A stretch of 11,560 nucleotides of DNA from a virus (IMGVR_UViG_2693429774_000009:1-11560), one strand, 5' to 3'. Positions 1 through 10,242 are shown, counted from the first letter of the stretch. Notes: generated by a model from the letters alone, not told the origin. Translations and numbers: made by a program.

Positions 1-280
1 TTCAAACCACTGAAAAAGAATAGGCGTTTTTTCATCAATGACCTTTAACTCATATTCCTTTCCGGCAAAAGAAACCGTTTGACAGGGTGAACTCTGCACT
101 ATATTTGCTGAGTTATGGAAAGTTGTCCTTATCGGTGAAAGCATTCGTCGTCCTGTTTATCCATATTTTCTTCACAACTAACTCTTTAATCTATTAATTA
201 TATTGGCATACTCAACCACAAAACCTCCAGCAGTTTTGCCATCTTTGCTTTCCTAACAAACATCACCATGACATGACAAC

Positions 281-306
281 AAAAACCGGAGCCGGACTCC
301 GGTTTT
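281..306. terminator. Possible bidirectional rho-independent terminator (stem CCGGAG/CTCCGG, loop CCGGA, A-run 5' and T-run 3')
   Basis: Perfect 6-bp GC-rich inverted repeat at 286-291/297-302 flanked by AAAAA (281-285) and TTTT (303-306). Confidence 0.35.
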
Positions 307-354
307 GTGAAGCTGTCGGGTTACTTCATCCCGCCAATATTTTCCCACGTCCCG

Positions 355-561
<207 letters not shown>

Positions 562-599
562 TTATTGTGCGCTGCGGTGCGCGGTGAAATACCGGTACA

Positions 600-627
600 A
601 AAATGCCCCGCATCTGCGAGGCATTTT
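600..627 (-). terminator. Hairpin immediately downstream of the Rz stop, candidate terminator for the late transcript
   Basis: 8-bp perfect inverted repeat AAAATGCC (600-607) / GGCATTTT (620-627) with inner CGCA/TGCG pairing; lies about 40 nt past Rz stop codon on the minus strand. Confidence 0.3.
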
Positions 628-664
628 CCTGAAAGTCACTTGTTAAATTTCAGTGAAATTAAAA

Positions 665-1081
665 TTATTTTAAGCACTGCGTCCTGATGTATTCCTGCAG
701 GTAGTTAACCTGCGCGGTTATCTTGTCGATTCCACCTCGGAGACGGTAATAATTGAGTTCAGCATCTGCTGTAAGTCCTGGGCTTTCTCCATCGCCCATG
801 CTGCTGGCTCCGGTCGTTGACTTTGCACAGGTGGCGGAGACTTGCAGGCGCTTACGCCCAGCAGAAACATCAGCACGGAGACTTTCGATAGTCGCATTAG
901 CATCAGCAAGCTCCTTTGTGTATCTGGCGTCGAGTTCTGCTACATCACGTTGACGCTTCTGCATGTCAGCGATGATGGATGTGGCTTTGTCGCGCTGGTC
1001 TTTGTAGGCGATGGCGTTATCACGGTAATGATTAACAGCCCATGACAGGCAGAGGATGATGCAAATAACCAGAGCGGAGAT
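665..1081 (-). pseudogene. Rz: Rz i-spanin, 5'-truncated (no start codon; in-frame stop at 1094-1096)
   Basis: Minus-strand frame [32 protein letters not shown]...[22 protein letters not shown]... matches lambda Rz from residue about 8 onward; homology to lambda ends at about 1081 and no ATG precedes it. ORF-track entry 665..964 is the internal-Met part. Confidence 0.75.
718..909 (-). CDS. Rz1: Rz1-like o-spanin lipoprotein embedded in the +1 frame of Rz
   Basis: 63-aa [38 protein letters not shown]...: signal peptide, lipobox V-S-A-C, proline-rich mature part, fully nested inside Rz as in lambda. Confidence 0.6.
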
Positions 1082-1151
1082 AGAGGAACAGAGTTAAAAA
1101 GCCGGAAGCGGAATCAAATCACAGGATGACCATCTGCCAGTGGCAGGTCAT

Positions 1152-1178
1152 AAAAAAAAGGCTGCGCAATGCGCAGCC
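1152..1178 (-). terminator. Rho-independent terminator for minus-strand transcripts leaving the cargo cassette
   Basis: + strand AAAAAAAA (1152-1159) then GGCTGCGC (1160-1167), loop AAT, GCGCAGCC (1171-1178); on the minus strand this is an 8-bp GC stem followed by a U-run. Confidence 0.5.
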
Positions 1179-1607
1179 AGAACTCACAAGGAAAATGATA
1201 AAAGGAATAACACTAGTGATGTACGCATGGCGCCTCCCGCTAAGTTCTGCAATGATCAAACAGAACTCGCTACGTGCCCTTAAAACTCGATCATTTAGCC
1301 CCTCCAAGGAGGATTCACCATGCGGTTGATTTTTTAATAAACAGTAAACAAAAAAGTCAAGAATTATTCATTCTGTTCTTTCATCATCGGCCACAGCAAT
1401 ACCACAATGCCGCAGACCAGAGCGCCATCAGTCAGTACCAACATTATCCTGCTGGTGAAATCCATCATCACCATCACTAAAAGCAGGATCACAACAGCAA
1501 GCAGACACAGTTTATAAAACAATGTTCAGAAAACGCATTCAGCATGCCTAAGGTTCTATTCCTACGAATAGCCAACTTGCAACTTAAAATATTATTTATG
1601 CAGCCAA

Positions 1608-2366
1608 TTAAATTCTGGTCCTTACAATATCAACCTGAAGATTCTTATATTGTGCTGATTGATAAATGACAAACCTTTTACTACCTGCATTGAAAGAAGT
1701 AGACAAAACCAGACAATTATCATAACGAGCAAGAACATAATACCAACCATCATTATAATTAATCATTTCATATTCTTTCTTAAACTGTGGTTTGTAATAT
1801 CCTGTCAGAAATGAAAAAAGCCAAAAATATGCCACAAAAGCAATCATCACAATCTCAAAAAAATGTTTTTTTATAAATGGCTTATCATAGAAGCATGATA
1901 CCGATAAAAATCGCCCATAAGATCTTATCGAAATTGTAACCGCCAGCGCAATCGCTGCTGACAGTAGCAAAAGAGGTACCTGAATCTTCTGTCTCAATAT
2001 AGAAAACTCAATAATTGCCGGCACAAACAATAATTCCACAGCAAAATAAAGGCGAAATACATTTAGCTCTTGCATAGAATGTTTTCTTTTCACTGCGAAA
2101 AAGAATACAACACCAATACCCCAACCGATAAGAAATATAGCAATGACGATAACTGCAAAAAATAAACTTCTGGCAACATCATCAACACCTGCACCTACAA
2201 TCCACCATGGGAAGCCGTAGTAAAAAGAAGTACCCCATCCATAGAAATAAGCACTCCCCCATCCAAGGCATCCCATGTAGGCAATAAAAAGTGAAGAACT
2301 CCTGAGCAGCGCACCATCCTTCATAACCACCCCAATACAAGATGATAACATTGGCTTACAACTCAT
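1608..2366 (-). CDS. Hypothetical polytopic inner-membrane protein (about 5 predicted TM helices, aromatic-rich, about 55-aa soluble C-terminal tail); late-operon cargo
   Basis: 252-aa ORF, AT-rich relative to flanking phage genes; hydrophobic segments e.g. SLFFAVIVIAIFLIGWGIGVVFFFAV, VPLLLLSAAIALAVTISI, FEIVMIAFVAYFWLFSFLTGYY; located directly downstream of Q and the pR'-like promoter where lambda has S/R. Start may be the internal Met at 2324 (GGGGTGG RBS). No family recognised. Confidence 0.6.
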   Translation of the reverse strand: MSCKPMLSSCIGVVMKDGALLRSSSLFIAYMGCLGWGSAYFYGWGTSFYYGFPWWIVGAGVDDVARSLFFAVIVIAIFLIGWGIGVVFFFAVKRKHSMQELNVFRLYFAVELLFVPAIIEFSILRQKIQVPLLLLSAAIALAVTISIRSYGRFLSVSCFYDKPFIKKHFFEIVMIAFVAYFWLFSFLTGYYKPQFKKEYEMINYNDGWYYVLARYDNCLVLSTSFNAGSKRFVIYQSAQYKNLQVDIVRTRI

Positions 2367-2532
2367 AACAAAAGCAATTCAATGCCGTCAAGAGGTTACA
2401 GGCTAAAAAAACTCTATTACATAGCAGCCAGCATGTTTACCGTACAAGTACAACTCAGGGCATAAAAACTACTCGGCGGCAGGTTATTGAGACTCATCAA
2501 TGACATGTAAAAAACGCCCATTATTGGTGTCA

Positions 2533-2561
2533 AGTTTCCCCAAAGTTATTCAAAAAGTCAA
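2533..2561 (-). promoter_or_regulatory. pR'-like late promoter (Q-utilisation region) reading leftward into the cargo cassette
   Basis: Minus strand reads TTGACTTTTTGAATAACTTTGGGGAAACTTGACACC, closely resembling lambda pR' TTGACTTATTGAATAAAATTGGGTAAATTTGACTC; -35 TTGACT at 2556-2561, -10 homologue 2533-2538. Homology to lambda is lost a few tens of bp downstream. Confidence 0.45.
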
Positions 2562-2603
2562 TATTATGCCGTTAATATGTTGCCATCCGTGGCAATCATG
2601 GCG

Positions 2604-3227
2604 CTAACGTGTGATCGCATTCAAAATGTTGTCTGCGATTGACTCTTCCTTGTGGCATTGCACAACCAGAGCGTCATACAGCGGCTTAACAGTGCGTGAC
2701 CAGGTGGGTTGGGTAAGGTTTGGGATTAGCATCGTCACAGCGCGATATGCGGCGCTTGCTGGCATTCTTGAATAACCGACGCCTTTACATCTTCCGCACT
2801 CTTTCTCAGCAACTCTCCCCCACAGCTCTGTTTTGGCTATATCAACCGCACGGCCTGTACCGTGGCAATCTCTGCATCTTGCGCCCGGCGTAGCGGCACT
2901 ACGGCAATAATCCGCATAAGCGAATGTTGCGAGCACTTGCAGTACCTTTGCCTTAGTATTTCCTTCAAGCTTTGCCACGCCACGGTATTTCCCCGATACC
3001 TTGTGTGCAAATTGCATCAGATAGTTGATAGCCTTTTGTTTGTCGTTCTGGCTGAGTTCGTGCTTACCACAGAATACAGCCATTCCGAATCCGGCTTGTG
3101 ATTGCGCCATCCCCATAGCAGCCATCACATCAGTACCGGAAAGAGAGTCAGAAGCCGTGGCCCGTGGTGAGTCGCTCATCATCGGGCTTTTTGGCGAATG
3201 AAATTTAGCTATGCTTTCGAGTCTCAT
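2604..3227 (-). CDS. Q: Late-gene antiterminator Q (lambda-type, 207 aa)
   Basis: [94 protein letters not shown]... is essentially lambda Q including the Cys-rich zinc-binding region. Confidence 0.95.
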
Positions 3228-3586
3228 GCGCCTTCTCCCTGTACCTGAATCAATGTGAGGTTTCCGCAGAACACTGCGCCAGTATCGATATACATCTGGT
3301 TGGCAAATTTGAGTGGTTTCACTGCTGGCGTATGACCAAAGATGAACGTGTCCGCGCCTTTGATTTCTTTCACGATCCCGTCTTGTGAGTTGCTGATTCG
3401 TTCGCGGTTCCAGATTACCTGCTGATGATCAACTGGCTTTCCAAACTCGTATTTATCACAAGGATAGCAATCCCCCAATTTGAGGGATGTTTTATCCCTC
3501 GTTTTAGGGGATTTTCCCTCGTTTTGAGGGATACACCATTCTGAGATGTTTTTATTTGGTCCAAACATGCCGCCTTGCTGCTTGAT
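3224..3586 (-). pseudogene. In-frame deletion fusion: internal fragment of replication initiator O (ori iteron segment) joined to the C-terminal half of a lambda-type Ser/Thr protein phosphatase (orf221/PP-lambda)
   Basis: Minus-strand frame [42 protein letters not shown] (lambda O, iteron-encoded) continues directly into [78 protein letters not shown] (metallophosphatase C-terminus); ends 4 nt into Q start as in lambda. P, ren and nin genes are absent. Confidence 0.7.
3471..3532. repeat. ori-lambda iterons (three O-binding repeats; fourth iteron and the AT-rich region deleted)
   Basis: Three tandem copies of the reverse-complemented lambda iteron: TCCCCCAATTTGAGGGA (3471-3487), ATCCCTCGTTTTAGGGGAT (3494-3512), TCCCTCGTTTTGAGGGAT (3515-3532); deletion junction falls in the fourth iteron (TATCC at about 3462-3466). 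Confidence 0.8.
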
Positions 3587-3751
3587 AAGAGGGATTGGAT
3601 TCCAAAGTTCTCAATGCTGCTTGCTGTTCTTGAATGGGGTGTCGTCGACGACGACATGGCTCGATTGGCACGACAAGTTGCTTCGATTCTCACCAATAAA
3701 AAACGCCCGGCGGCAACCGAGCGTTCTGAACAAATCCAGATGGAATTCTGA
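3587..3751 (+). pseudogene. cII: cII 3' fragment (residues about 44-97) on the inverted segment
   Basis: + strand translation [54 protein letters not shown]-stop matches the lambda CII C-terminus. Confidence 0.8.
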
Positions 3752-3783
3752 GGTTATTACTGGAACTATCAACAGGAGTCATT

Positions 3784-4077
3784 ATGACAAATACAGCAAA
3801 AATACTCAACTTCGGCAGAGGTAACTTTGCCGGACAGGAGCGTAATGTGGCAGATCTCGATGATGGTTACGCCAGACTATCAAATATGCTGCTTGAGGCT
3901 TATTCAGGCGCAGATCTGACCAAGCGACAGTTTAAAGTGCTGCTTGCCATTCTGCGTAGAACCTATGGGTGGAATAAACCAATGGACAGAATCACCGATT
4001 CTCAACTTAGCGAGATTACAAAGTTACCTGTCAAACGGTGCAATGAAGCCAAGTTAGAACTCGTCAGAATGAATATT
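3784..4077 (+). pseudogene. O: O 5' fragment (N-terminal 98 codons of replication initiator O) on the inverted segment
   Basis: MTNTAKILNFGRGNFAGQERNVADLDDGYARLSNMLLEAYSGADLTKRQFKVLLAILRRTYGWNKPMDRITDSQLSEITKLPVKRCNEAKLELVRMNI matches the lambda O N-terminus with its RBS AGGAGTCATTATG; homology stops at 4077. Confidence 0.8.
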
Positions 4078-4206
4078 CCACCTGCTGATCTGCGACTTAT
4101 CAACTCCCACAGCTTCCGCTGTCTTCTCAGTTCCAAGCATTGCGATTTTGTTAAGCAACGCACTCTCGATTCGTAGAGCCTCGTTGCGTTTGTTTGCACG
4201 AACCAT
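4078..4206 (-). pseudogene. cII: cII 5' fragment (first 43 codons) with native RBS
   Basis: Minus strand ATG at 4204-4206 preceded by GGAAATACTTACAT; MVRANKRNEALRIESALLNKIAMLGTEKTAEAVGVDKSQISRW then diverges at the inversion junction and stops after 7 more codons. Confidence 0.8.
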
Positions 4207-4285
4207 ATGTAAGTATTTCCTTAGATAACAATTGATTGAATGTATGCAAATAAATGCATACACCATAGGTGTGGTTTATTTTGAT

Positions 4286-4317
4286 GCCCTTTTTCAGGGC
4301 TGGGATGTGTAAGAGCG
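4286..4317 (-). promoter_or_regulatory. nutR (boxA CGCTCTTAC and boxB GCCCTGAAAAAGGGC) between cro and cII
   Basis: + strand shows reverse complements GCCCTTTTTCAGGGC (4286-4300) and GTAAGAGCG (4309-4317), matching lambda nutR boxB and boxA. Confidence 0.6.
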
Positions 4318-4325
4318 GGAATGTC

Positions 4326-5678
<1,353 letters not shown>

Positions 5679-5728
5679 TCCCCACCTCAATCTCGATAAC
5701 AAAAAAACAAACTATTTTCCGTTTAAAA

Positions 5729-5796
5729 ACAATGGAGTTTGTTTTTCACGCCCCTTTTTACAATATCTCTTGTTTACAACATACAATCTTCCTTGT
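5729..5796. promoter_or_regulatory. Left operator OL1-OL3 (434 type) with pL reading rightward toward N
   Basis: ACAATGGAGTTTGT (5729-5742), ACAATATCTCTTGT (5760-5773), ACAATCTTCCTTGT (5783-5796), all ACAA-N6-TTGT; possible -35 TTTACA at 5773-5778. Confidence 0.7.
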
Positions 5797-5842
5797 AATT
5801 TTAAGCCATCAGCAGGACGCACTGACCACCATTGAAGGTGAG

Positions 5843-5872
5843 GCTCTTAAAAATTAAGCCCTGAAGAAGGGC
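5843..5872 (+). promoter_or_regulatory. nutL (boxA-like GCTCTTAA and boxB GCCCTGAAGAAGGGC)
   Basis: GGCTCTTAAAAATTAAGCCCTGAAGAAGGGC matches lambda nutL boxA/boxB, located in the N leader. Confidence 0.65.
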
Positions 5873-6029
5873 AGCATTCAAAGCAGAAGGCTTTGGTGTG
5901 TGTGATACGAAACGAAGCATTGGCCGGAAGTGCGAATCCGGATTAGCTGCCAATGTGCCATTGCGGGGTGTTTTCGTTCAGGACTACGACTCCCACACAC
6001 AACCAAAGCTAACTGACAGGAGAATCCAG

Positions 6030-6353
6030 ATGGATGCACAAACACGCCGCCGCGAACGTCGCGCAGAGAAACAGGCTCAATGGAAAGCAGCAAATCCCCT
6101 GTTGGTTGGGGTAAGCGCTAAACCAGTTAACCGCCCTATTCTCTCGCTGAATCGCAAACCGAAATCACGAGTAGAAAGCGCACTGAATCCGATAGACCTT
6201 ACGGTGCTGGCTGAATACCACGAACAGATTGAAAGCAACCTGCAACGTATTGAGCGCAAGAATCATCGAGTTTGGTATAGCAAGCCAGGTGAGTTCGGTA
6301 TAACTTGTCAAGGAAGACAAAAGGTTAAAGGGGAATCCATTCCATTGGCATGA
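6030..6353 (+). CDS. N: Antitermination protein N (lambda type, 107 aa)
   Basis: MDAQTRRRERRAEKQAQWKAANPLLVGVSAKPVNRPILSLNRKPKSRVESALNPIDLTVLAEYH... including the arginine-rich boxB-binding motif; ORF-track call 5898.. starts at a spurious upstream Met. Confidence 0.9.
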   Translation: MDAQTRRRERRAEKQAQWKAANPLLVGVSAKPVNRPILSLNRKPKSRVESALNPIDLTVLAEYHEQIESNLQRIERKNHRVWYSKPGEFGITCQGRQKVKGESIPLA

Positions 6354-7231
6354 GGTACGTAATGAAGAAGATTGATTACAAGTCCATACCAAAACCAATA
6401 GACTCAGCATCAGAGCGAAAAAAACACAAAAAAGAGGCTGAAAAATTAGCAAATTATATCAGTTTTATTAGAAACAATGCTCACGGCGATGGCGACAAGA
6501 AGTTGCTTTCAGATGCTCGGACCCAAGCGTTCGGTATACTTCGTAAGCAGATGCAATATCGTCTTCATCCTGGCTACATAATTGAAATTCGCCCTACTGA
6601 AAGACAATTGTTCTTATTAAACTCTGTCTTTGACTTTGTAAACGTAGTTGGAGATCTTATCGACAGGTCTGTAGATAAGGATCCTGATACAAATAGTTTT
6701 CTTCTAACAAATAAAGAATACTTATATGGTAAATTCGGTATAAACGGATGGCAAAAATATGTACGCTTCTTACGTGCATTCGTTGATGCGTATAAAAATT
6801 CCGACATGATTTATACATATTTGCCTGGTGGTGATAATTGTACGCTTTCGGCAGACAATAGAATATTCATACCTGTACTTGGTCTTGGGCTGATTAATGC
6901 AGTAAATGAAAAAGATGTTATAATTGTTAAGCAGTGGCGAAAATATGAGGGATATAGATATCTGCCATGCTTTGATATATTAAAAATACAGAATAAATTC
7001 TATGTAAAAATTAAATATAAAGAAGATATTTTCTTCCTCAGAAAAAACATAGATCTTTTACAAGAACTTTCTGGTACAATAGATGTCATCTTAGGTTCTA
7101 GGTTTATAAAAGAACTGAAAGAAAGCAGGTCTTTCTCTCGTGTAGAGATAAGCGAGTCAGAGTTATGGGGTATATCAAATAATCCTGTAAACCACGCTCA
7201 CCAACGAAACCCAAACAAAAAGTGGTCATAA
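6350..7231 (+). CDS. Hypothetical protein (293 aa; likely true start at 6362 giving 289 aa), AT-rich cargo gene replacing the lambda ral/sieB region
   Basis: Long ORF with ATG overlapping N stop (ATGA) and a second ATG at 6362 preceded by GAGG; markedly lower GC than flanking N and ea10; Lys/Ile/Asn/Tyr-rich, no TM segments, no motif recognised. Confidence 0.6.
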   Translation: MRYVMKKIDYKSIPKPIDSASERKKHKKEAEKLANYISFIRNNAHGDGDKKLLSDARTQAFGILRKQMQYRLHPGYIIEIRPTERQLFLLNSVFDFVNVVGDLIDRSVDKDPDTNSFLLTNKEYLYGKFGINGWQKYVRFLRAFVDAYKNSDMIYTYLPGGDNCTLSADNRIFIPVLGLGLINAVNEKDVIIVKQWRKYEGYRYLPCFDILKIQNKFYVKIKYKEDIFFLRKNIDLLQELSGTIDVILGSRFIKELKESRSFSRVEISESELWGISNNPVNHAHQRNPNKKWS

Positions 7232-7788: not shown

Positions 7789-7860
7789 GCGCGGCGTTAC
7801 CGCATACCAATTACGCTTCACTCGAGGCGTTTTTCGTTATGTATAAATAAGGAGCACACC

Positions 7861-8025
7861 ATGCAATATGCCATTGCAGGGTGGCCTGTTGCTGGCTGCC
7901 CTTCCGAATCTTTACTTGAACGAATCACCCGTAAATTACGTGACGGATGGAAACGCCTTATCGACATACTTAATCAGCCAGGAGTCCCAAAAAATGGATC
8001 AAACAATTATGGCTATCCAGACTAA
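7861..8025 (+). CDS. cIII: CIII, FtsH inhibitor stabilising CII (54 aa; below ORF-track size cutoff)
   Basis: ATG at 7861 after AAGGAG; translation [54 protein letters not shown]-stop matches lambda CIII. Confidence 0.85.
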   Translation: MQYAIAGWPVAGCPSESLLERITRKLRDGWKRLIDILNQPGVPKNGSNNYGYPD

Positions 8026-10155: not shown

Positions 10156-10242
10156 GAACGAGCATTGAGATGGCACATATGGGCGCAGATAGCACATGCA
10201 GACGTAACCAATATTCGAATTGAAGAACTGAAAGAACACCAA

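Follow-up and report, generated by a model that had tools for sequence, protein, structure and literature searches.

A candidate late-operon moron cassette encoding two membrane proteins in a decayed lambdoid prophage

We analyzed a stretch of viral DNA of 11,560 nucleotides (IMGVR_UViG_2693429774_000009:1-11560), referred to here as the window. Its segment 1082-2530 can be read, with a probability that we put at roughly 85%, as a moron cassette in the leader of the late operon that coexists with the lysis genes in intact lambdoid phages; S and R would have been lost by a deletion in this decayed prophage, and the membrane proteins of the cassette would be transcribed from pR' and act in the cell envelope. 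The cassette appears to consist of two real genes, encoding a 238-247-aa protein of the STM1630 family and a 52-aa DUF3927/TciB-like protein, and a strong intrinsic terminator. The order in intact relatives would be Q, pR', cassette, terminator, an optional nanS-p, holin, endolysin and Rz/Rz1, from which one deletion at a TA microhomology would have taken everything from just upstream of nanS-p through Rz codon 7. The cassette as such is already known, being annotated in phage 434 and present in hundreds of genomes.

Results

The prophage in the window retains int, xis, the red genes, N, cI, cro and Q, and is devoid of replication genes, nin and all morphogenesis genes. A 491-bp inversion (3587-4077), positioned between pR and Q, disrupts cII and O'. 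An initial annotation of this DNA had described an AT-rich cargo cassette that takes the place of the S/R lysis genes under the Q-dependent late promoter. All sequence features listed there are present, and the interpretation built on them was partly supported by our analysis. Indeed, GC content is 0.31-0.44 over positions 1200-2500 compared to 0.49-0.53 in the flanks, and the base composition of the cassette is thus unlike that of the adjoining phage genes, as is typical of a moron. Homology to lambda resumes at Rz as described (position 1082, codon 7-8, with 77% identity over the Rz remnant), whereas on the other side it stops at 2529 and not at about 2510. That the element is unable to lyse its host is true but trivial, since the replication, nin and morphogenesis genes are missing too. 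The features discussed below are collected in Table 1.

Table 1. Features of the late region of the prophage; positions refer to the window
Feature	Position	Strand	Basis and remarks
Lambda-type antiterminator Q, intact, 207 aa	2604..3227	-	Pfam PF03589 (Antiterm), E=6e-58; 96.3% nucleotide identity to lambda
Late promoter pR' with embedded Q-binding (qut) region	2520..2561	-	Read directly; homology to annotated Qut segments
Degenerate remnant of a tR'-type hairpin terminator	2462..2487	-	AACCTGCCGCCGAGTAGTTTTT; no hairpin predicted or detected
STM1630-family (PF27470) inner-membrane protein gene	1608..2366	-	phrog_1521, E=6e-153; longest ORF 252 aa
52-aa two-helix membrane protein gene, DUF3927/TciB-like	1364..1522	-	Pfam PF13064, E=3.4e-14
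62-aa ORF, "putative membrane protein" in the 434 annotation	1119..1307	-	Probably not a gene
Strong intrinsic terminator ending the cassette	1150..1178	-	GGCTGCGC-ATT-GCGCAGCC, then T8
Deletion junction with TA microhomology	1081..1082		Lost: from 16 nt before the nanS-p start codon through Rz codon 7
Truncated Rz (i-spanin), codons 8-145	665..1081	-	Pfam PF03245, E=1.2e-34
Embedded Rz1 (o-spanin lipoprotein) ORF, apparently intact	718..909	-	Lipobox LLGVSAC; o-spanin equivalently placed in 434

The cassette occurs together with lysis genes in intact phages

Comparison with sequenced phages and genomes revealed that the cassette is not confined to the decayed element. Positions 1082-2468 of the window are 99.9% identical to wild-type phage 434 (OL657226), and positions 1082-2603 are 97.9% identical to phage 2B8. 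The locus of 434 reads, in order, a Q82-like Q, a terminator, a putative membrane protein (744 bp), TciB (DUF3927) and a terminator-containing small ORF, continuing with a SASA esterase, a class II pinholin, a SAR endolysin, and the i- and o-spanin. The Sp3 prophage of strain Sakai displays this order minus the esterase, and the prophage of E. coli RM14723 (L001) has the cassette followed by lysis genes, as in 434. Holin and endolysin also lie downstream of the cassette in 2B8, as they do in 434, where the spanins follow as well. Of the 5,426 complete E. coli genomes, at least 682 carry 80% or more of the cassette, and in 536 complete genomes it is contiguous with holin, endolysin and Rz. Since the cassette sits with intact lysis genes in 434, 2B8, Sp3 and these 536 genomes, it is not a replacement of S and R, as had been proposed. 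The initial annotation had itself named two observations that would speak against its reading. One of them, the same cassette in intact functional phages, was found, for example in 434; the other, an identity as a diverged holin, was not, as the membrane protein matches no holin family.

A mutant of 434 provides further information on this region. Phage 434B is a plaque-forming clear mutant in which about 5.5 kb, covering Q, the late promoter and the lysis region, are swapped for DLP12 sequence (PMC9119081). A feature termed "region of 434B nonhomology" in the 434 annotation takes in the cassette. Since 434B forms plaques without the cassette region, the cassette is dispensable for lytic growth, and its position, dispensability and composition fit a lambdoid late-region moron. 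The site between Q/pR' and the holin had rightly been recognized as the one where Stx phages carry stx; relatives of the window carry nanS-p directly after the cassette.

The lysis genes were lost in a separate deletion

Holin, endolysin and the Rz start are gone in the window, as had been noted, and comparison with the relatives shows that the first seven Rz codons are included in the loss. Alignments to L001 and to the closest relative, L002, are collinear and break only at 1081/1082, where a 2-bp TA is common to both flanks. Window positions 539-1082 correspond to 3001-3544 of L001 with 100% identity, and positions 1081-3466 to 4611-6996 with 99.2% identity. The sequence missing from the window amounts to 1,066 bp compared to L001, comprising the first seven codons of Rz, an RrrD-type endolysin, a class II holin and a 5' remnant of nanS-p. 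Compared to L002 it amounts to 1,772 bp, which hold the SASA-family esterase gene nanS-p and a 3' endolysin remnant. The junction itself was found in none of the 5,426 complete E. coli genomes. Judged by these alignments, the loss of S/R is a plain, separate deletion and an event of ordinary prophage decay, of which L002 represents an earlier stage.

The deletion also affects the spanins. The reading frame of Rz is closed by a stop just upstream of the junction, and the first Met of Rz is at 964; with no Rz start before this Met, no N-terminal membrane anchor can be produced. The Rz1 ORF appears intact, but owing to the lost Rz start a complete Rz/Rz1 spanin pair is not encoded.

The cassette encodes a conserved polytopic membrane protein and a small DUF3927 protein

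The 252-aa polytopic membrane protein ORF initially described in the cassette is real. In relatives the protein begins at M15 (238 aa) or M6 (247 aa) of this long ORF. Because most relatives, 236-238 aa in length, align from Met15, the ATG at 2324 (238 aa), which is preceded by GGGGTGG, is likely the true start. The protein is 99.6% identical to its phage 434 counterpart, and its PHROG, phrog_1521, is annotated as "unknown function". PF27470, with the Pfam short name "TfpB", is precomputed on all of the 103 homologues, the PGAP name "STM1630 family protein" stands on an E. coli match that covers the cassette, and a Salmonella protein encoded beside sseJ shares 46% identity over 94% of the query. 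These matches place the protein, along its full length, in the STM1630 family (PF27470). With dN/dS values of 0.06-0.2 over eleven comparisons, the gene is under purifying selection. The family is small: an exhaustive profile search of 1.84 billion proteins returned 73 cluster representatives, none of them named. Where the source names an organism, almost all belong to the Enterobacterales, and a scan of genomes added a relative in H. ducreyi; in total, the profile scan of genome contigs yielded six loci.

A structural model was obtained with AlphaFold2 from a 56-sequence alignment (pLDDT 78, pTM 0.70), while a 25-sequence alignment gave a poor model (pLDDT 58). Five long helices are predicted, and after them a C-terminal beta domain of about 55 aa with five strands. 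Hydropathy analysis revealed four strongly hydrophobic segments, to which the model adds an aromatic, glycine-rich N-terminal helix. The positions of basic residues suggest an N-in, C-out topology. Neither sequence nor fold searches pointed to a function of the membrane protein: it had no match in the Pfam and NCBIfam sets scanned, which lack the PF27470 model, a PDB sequence search returned nothing, and comparison of the fold did not retrieve a known Sie or Abi fold. None of the three ORFs of the region matched a PADLOC defense model at E<=0.1. In the literature searched, we found no functional study of either protein of the cassette. A role as a type IV pilus accessory protein, to which the name "TfpB" might point, was considered and rejected, as pilus genes were present in none of the nine genomic contexts inspected; since the relatives have no such neighbors, the Pfam short name is no guide to function. 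In the literature examined, "TfpB" denotes type IVb pili or a pilus extension motor of the PilB family and not a membrane protein of this kind (PMC4628258).

The 52-aa gene of the cassette was overlooked in the initial annotation. Its product belongs to the DUF3927/TciB-like proteins, scoring 53 bits against PF13064 at a cut-off of 25, and also matches phrog_1470 "TciB-like" (E=2.5e-17); the 434 counterpart is annotated as TciB. The name derives from tciB of phage P1, whose function is conjectural and which was non-essential in a P1 CRISPRi screen (PMC10695390). Both cassette genes are intact and 99.6-100% identical to the copies of the functional phage.

The 62-aa ORF was rejected as a third cassette gene on the basis of a dN/dS of about 1 and of 1-nt alignment gaps (in L001 and the relative L013). 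All 4-5 substitutions were non-synonymous against each of L001, 2B8 and L013, and Pfam, NCBIfam and PADLOC scans of this ORF gave nothing useful. The terminator falls inside it. This terminator, initially described as strong and on the minus strand, has a stem of 8 bp with 7 GC pairs followed by T8, and the 434 annotation lists the identical element as a terminator.

Homologues follow three types of Q and adjoin virulence loci

We inspected the genomic settings of the relatives. The homologue of Yersinia enterocolitica (45% identity) is encoded directly downstream of a Q of the PF06530 family. Homologues are thus found directly 3' of three types of Q, namely lambda Q (window), Q82-like (434, Sp3) and PF06530 (Yersinia), and the same gene following three Q types argues for selection of the position itself. 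Outside of phages, homologues also occur as chromosomal or plasmid orphans. In Salmonella the homologue is an orphan adjoining sseJ (the STM1630 locus), in C. rodentium it adjoins lpxR, and on E. coli contigs it neighbors the LT toxin genes eltAB, with insertion sequences around it. We also observed lpxR just upstream of Q in 434 and Sp3. Further orphans adjoin integrase and resolvase genes (Mangrovibacter) or umuC-like genes (Klebsiella aerogenes), or lie between rpoH and mqo (H. ducreyi). The DUF3927 partner was found only with the phage version of the membrane gene; beside the Salmonella and H. ducreyi homologues it was looked for and not found. STM1630 is transcribed from a promoter of its own, which has been mapped, and its expression rises in macrophages; deleting it left growth in LB unchanged, and reduced replication within macrophages was reported only for the other gene tested, STM2475 (PMC6785131).

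A lambda-type late promoter and a degenerate tR' hairpin precede the cassette

Upstream of the cassette, window positions 2529-3466 are 96.3% identical to lambda and span part of ninI, all of Q, and pR'. The promoter had initially been placed at 2533-2561, and its hexamers lie at exactly these positions, with a -35 element TTGACT (2561-2556), a 17-nt spacer and a -10 element GAAACT (2538-2533). An AATAAT, resembling a -10 element and corresponding to a pause element, follows at about 2525-2520. The pR' region and the AATAAT were assigned by eye against the lambda pR' sequence, which has its pause element at this place. A stretch of 77 nt around the promoter matches, with about 92% identity, sequences that carry the annotation "promoter / lambda Qut site" in HK97, HK022 and mEp phages. 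Taken together, the Q family, the promoter, the qut region and the pause element point to a lambda-type Q/pR'/qut switch.

In phage 434 the counterpart of the degenerate element is a hairpin, AAACCCGCTGCCGAGTGGGTTT followed by a T-run, which was detected at positions 4909-4888 of the 434 locus (L003) and also precedes the cassette in Sakai Sp3. The sequence AACCTGCCGCCGAGTAGTTTTT in the window, in L001 and in 2B8 is recognizable as this 434 hairpin, AAACCCGCTGCCGAGTGGGTTT, with folding lost. No canonical intrinsic terminator, and thus no tR', was found between 2535 and 2340, and the first canonical terminator after pR' is the one at 1178-1150, 1.35 kb downstream. Using identical scan criteria, we detected terminators on both sides of the cassette in 434 (L003 4909-4888 and 3597-3579), but only the downstream one in the window. 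The 196-nt leader and the 266-nt tail gave folding z-scores of +0.5 and -1.7, respectively, and structured RNA in leader or tail is therefore unsupported. A scan with Rfam gave no match in the cassette region, the sole match in the window being the cIII thermoregulator. Promoter-like matches were no commoner than in shuffled sequence. Upstream of the membrane gene, the motifs TTGACG and TTGTTATG are also found in the E. coli copy at the LT locus (protein P0046, 59% identity).

Discussion

The late promoter pR' is constitutive in lambda. Both membrane proteins of the cassette would be transcribed from pR', with their level raised once Q is made, and the terminator at 1178-1150 would serve as tR' for the downstream sequence. 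In the lambda-Q version the cassette would probably be transcribed from pR' without Q as well, since the tR' hairpin ahead of it is degenerate, which leaves the terminator behind the cassette as the first canonical one; the missing canonical hairpin is the one observation behind this proposal. Given a promoter that is constitutive in lambda and no hairpin behind it, some transcription in the lysogen is probable in elements of the lambda-Q type. Rho-dependent or weak termination in the leader of roughly 160-200 nt may, however, counteract transcription in the absence of Q. With cI, N, cro and Q all intact, Q could still be raised by SOS induction in this prophage, although the 491-bp inversion between pR and Q intervenes. 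As to function, a role in the envelope to the benefit of the lysogen, for example phage exclusion or tolerance to membrane-targeting toxins, is the most likely one, and our confidence in any specific activity is low; compared to this, a role in lysis is unlikely. More speculatively, the elements of the lambda-Q type without tR' (the window, the RM14723 prophage and 2B8) might make the proteins constitutively in lysogens without Q, as an envelope module of lysogenic conversion for phage exclusion or toxin tolerance. We advance this version tentatively and consider it rather doubtful, yet constitutive expression in lysogens would explain why the genes stay intact in decayed prophages and why orphans are found beside sseJ, lpxR and the LT genes.

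Several other explanations have to be weighed. The idea that the lysis genes were swapped for cargo, with the cassette inserted in place of S/R, is suggested by the direct contact between the cassette and Rz codon 8 and by the lack of holin and endolysin in the window. It is, however, extremely unlikely, given that cassette and S/R are both found in intact relatives, that the window aligns collinearly to L001 and L002 on either side of one breakpoint with 2-bp microhomology, and that L002 shows an intermediate decay with nanS-p and a 3' endolysin remnant. The 252-aa protein might also be a diverged holin, an antiholin or another lysis-timing factor: it is a membrane protein, its gene precedes the lysis genes on the late transcript, and aromatic and glycine residues abound in its helices. 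Against this stand the missing match to any holin family in Pfam or PHROGs, the coexistence of the protein with a class II pinholin and a SAR endolysin in 434, and the orphan homologues far from lysis genes in Salmonella, C. rodentium and H. ducreyi. Moreover, with about 240 aa, five predicted helices and a beta domain, the protein would be unlike known holins, small proteins with 1-4 TM segments encoded beside the endolysin; we know of none with this architecture. Phage 434B, which lacks the protein, still makes plaques (PMC9119081), and we regard a function as a lysis factor as very improbable.

A more specific reading of the cassette is that of a membrane-bound anti-phage system, acting by superinfection exclusion or abortive infection and made in the lysogen by read-through from pR' or from a promoter of its own. 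This would fit the classic moron position, the purifying selection on the membrane gene, the retention of an intact cassette in decayed prophages that have lost its neighbors, the interval free of canonical terminators from pR' to the cassette in the window variant, and the TTGACG and TTGTTATG motifs kept upstream in the LT-locus copy. However, neither a PADLOC match nor a known Sie or Abi fold was found, promoter-like matches occur at the frequency of shuffled sequence, and orphan homologues adjoin housekeeping genes in Pasteurellaceae-like contexts, which makes such a system an unlikely identity for the cassette. Alternatively, the cassette could be without current function, a leftover between random deletion endpoints in a dying prophage. 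The gross deletions, the inversion that breaks cII and O', and a junction unique to the window sequence are in line with this possibility, which nonetheless appears questionable to us, as neither gene is disrupted, their identity to the counterparts in a functional phage is 99.6-100%, and Q, pR' and the terminator are intact as well. The intact state of these elements argues against long neutral decay, without proving selection. We therefore favor the reading as a late-operon-leader moron whose neighboring lysis genes were deleted.

The structural finding itself carries little weight, as it describes textbook prophage decay around a cassette that was already annotated. Of broader relevance is the STM1630/PF27470 family, which is conserved under purifying selection, stands repeatedly first in the late operon behind three unrelated Q families and also adjoins the virulence loci sseJ, lpxR and eltAB. 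The cassette is flanked by terminators in phages of the Q82 type and open to pR' in those of the lambda-Q type. Moving a terminator could thus turn a late gene into a gene expressed in the lysogen, and the cassette offers a simple, testable case.

Among known systems, phage 434 (genes CPT_434_68 to 70; Feiss et al., 2022; PMC9119081) is closest, sharing with the window the membrane gene, the tciB-like gene and the terminator. The two differ upstream, where 434 combines a Q82-like Q with an intact tR' hairpin, whereas the window has a lambda-type Q/pR' and a degenerate hairpin. Downstream, 434 continues with nanS-p, pinholin, SAR endolysin and spanins, while the window has a deletion from nanS-p to Rz codon 7. 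The RM14723 prophage, Sakai Sp3 (ECs_0816) and 2B8 exhibit the same order of Q, membrane protein and DUF3927 gene as the window, followed by lysis genes, and L001 and 2B8 also share its lambda-type Q and leader. Unlike the window, all three keep holin and endolysin, and L001 and Sp3 an intact Rz as well; L001 carries only a 5' remnant of nanS-p. Salmonella STM1630 belongs to the same protein family, yet it is a non-prophage gene with no Q upstream and no DUF3927 partner. TciB of phage P1 has the DUF3927/phrog_1470 family in common with the 52-aa protein, but P1 tciB is part of a tciA-B-C set and the window has neither tciA nor tciC. Finally, the cargo of Stx phages (stx, nanS-p) and of LT-II prophages occupies the same site between Q/pR' and the holin as the cassette. 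In these phages the Q-to-S cargo is driven by pR' under Q antitermination, and nanS-p comes after stx in Stx phages. Their cargo is a secreted toxin or an esterase, whereas that of the window consists of two small membrane proteins.

Rearrangements and deletions in the window

Alignment of the window to its closest relative, L002, revealed a 491-bp inversion at 3587-4077, which matches L002 13361-13851 with 100% identity in reverse orientation. The inverted segment contains the portion of O that encodes the N-terminus, together with the 3' part of cII; as a result of the inversion cII is disrupted and the O fragment lies on the plus strand. No inverted repeats were found flanking the segment. 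At window 3224-3568 (L002 12998-13654), the N-terminus of O is joined to the C-terminal end of the phosphatase NinI. This fusion, which is annotated as "replication protein" in L002, arose by a deletion from O to ninI, and P and the nin region are missing alongside it. Furthermore, about 1.9 kb of L002 (19954-21853) is absent from the window at about position 10179. In L002 this stretch separates xis from the region of the DUF1382 gene and encodes a TraR/DksA-family protein and several hypothetical proteins.

Using an Rfam scan of the window, we detected the cIII thermoregulator RNA and no other match (see the table).

Features located in the window and in related loci
Feature	Location	Strand	Basis or remark
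nleB2 (type III effector gene), 5' end	window, about 1-144		
Tail-fibre pseudogene scraps	window, about 321-540		immediately past Rz
Lambda_thermo (cIII thermoregulator RNA)	window, 7848-7906	+	Rfam, 88.5 bits, E=5e-21
132-aa hypothetical protein WP_012578864 / ECs_0817	L001 (prophage of E. coli RM14723), 4416-4814	+	RefSeq annotation
lpxR (lipid A deacylase gene)	L003 (phage 434), 6119-7078		
lpxR	L013 (Sakai prophage Sp3), 5117-6076		
lpxR	L022 (C. rodentium chromosome), 3863-4823		

Surroundings of the cassette

Window 1-540 contains the 5' end of the effector gene nleB2 and scraps of tail-fibre pseudogenes. The neighbourhood continues in L002 with nleC, nleH, cif and espJ, and is an effector-carrying prophage remnant adjoining torT. 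The hypothetical protein ECs_0817 is encoded by an ORF that overlaps the 5' remnant of the esterase gene nanS-p and the terminator region; the window retains only its 3' part, at 1126-1329 on the plus strand. This ORF looks like a spurious call over non-coding or pseudogene sequence.

Relatives of the membrane-protein gene

A 3-kb contig placed in a metagenome bin (MAG) of Veillonella sp. encodes proteins that are 100% identical to the membrane protein and the DUF3927 protein of the window. Almost certainly, this contig derives from an E. coli prophage and was put in the wrong bin. A 59% identical STM1630-family gene was found at 5001-5714 of three E. coli contigs (L019-L021). It is surrounded by IS elements; eltAB, which encode the heat-labile enterotoxin, lie about 0.9 kb away, and the STb gene is nearby. 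More than 900 contigs are reported to carry this STM1630-family gene. The TTGACG and TTGTTATG motifs 5' of the gene are common to the L019-L021 copy and the phage copy.

In phage 434 and Sp3, Q is immediately preceded by lpxR, and on the C. rodentium chromosome the STM1630-family gene directly adjoins lpxR, without an intervening Q. Linkage of lpxR to Q or the STM1630-family gene is recurrent.
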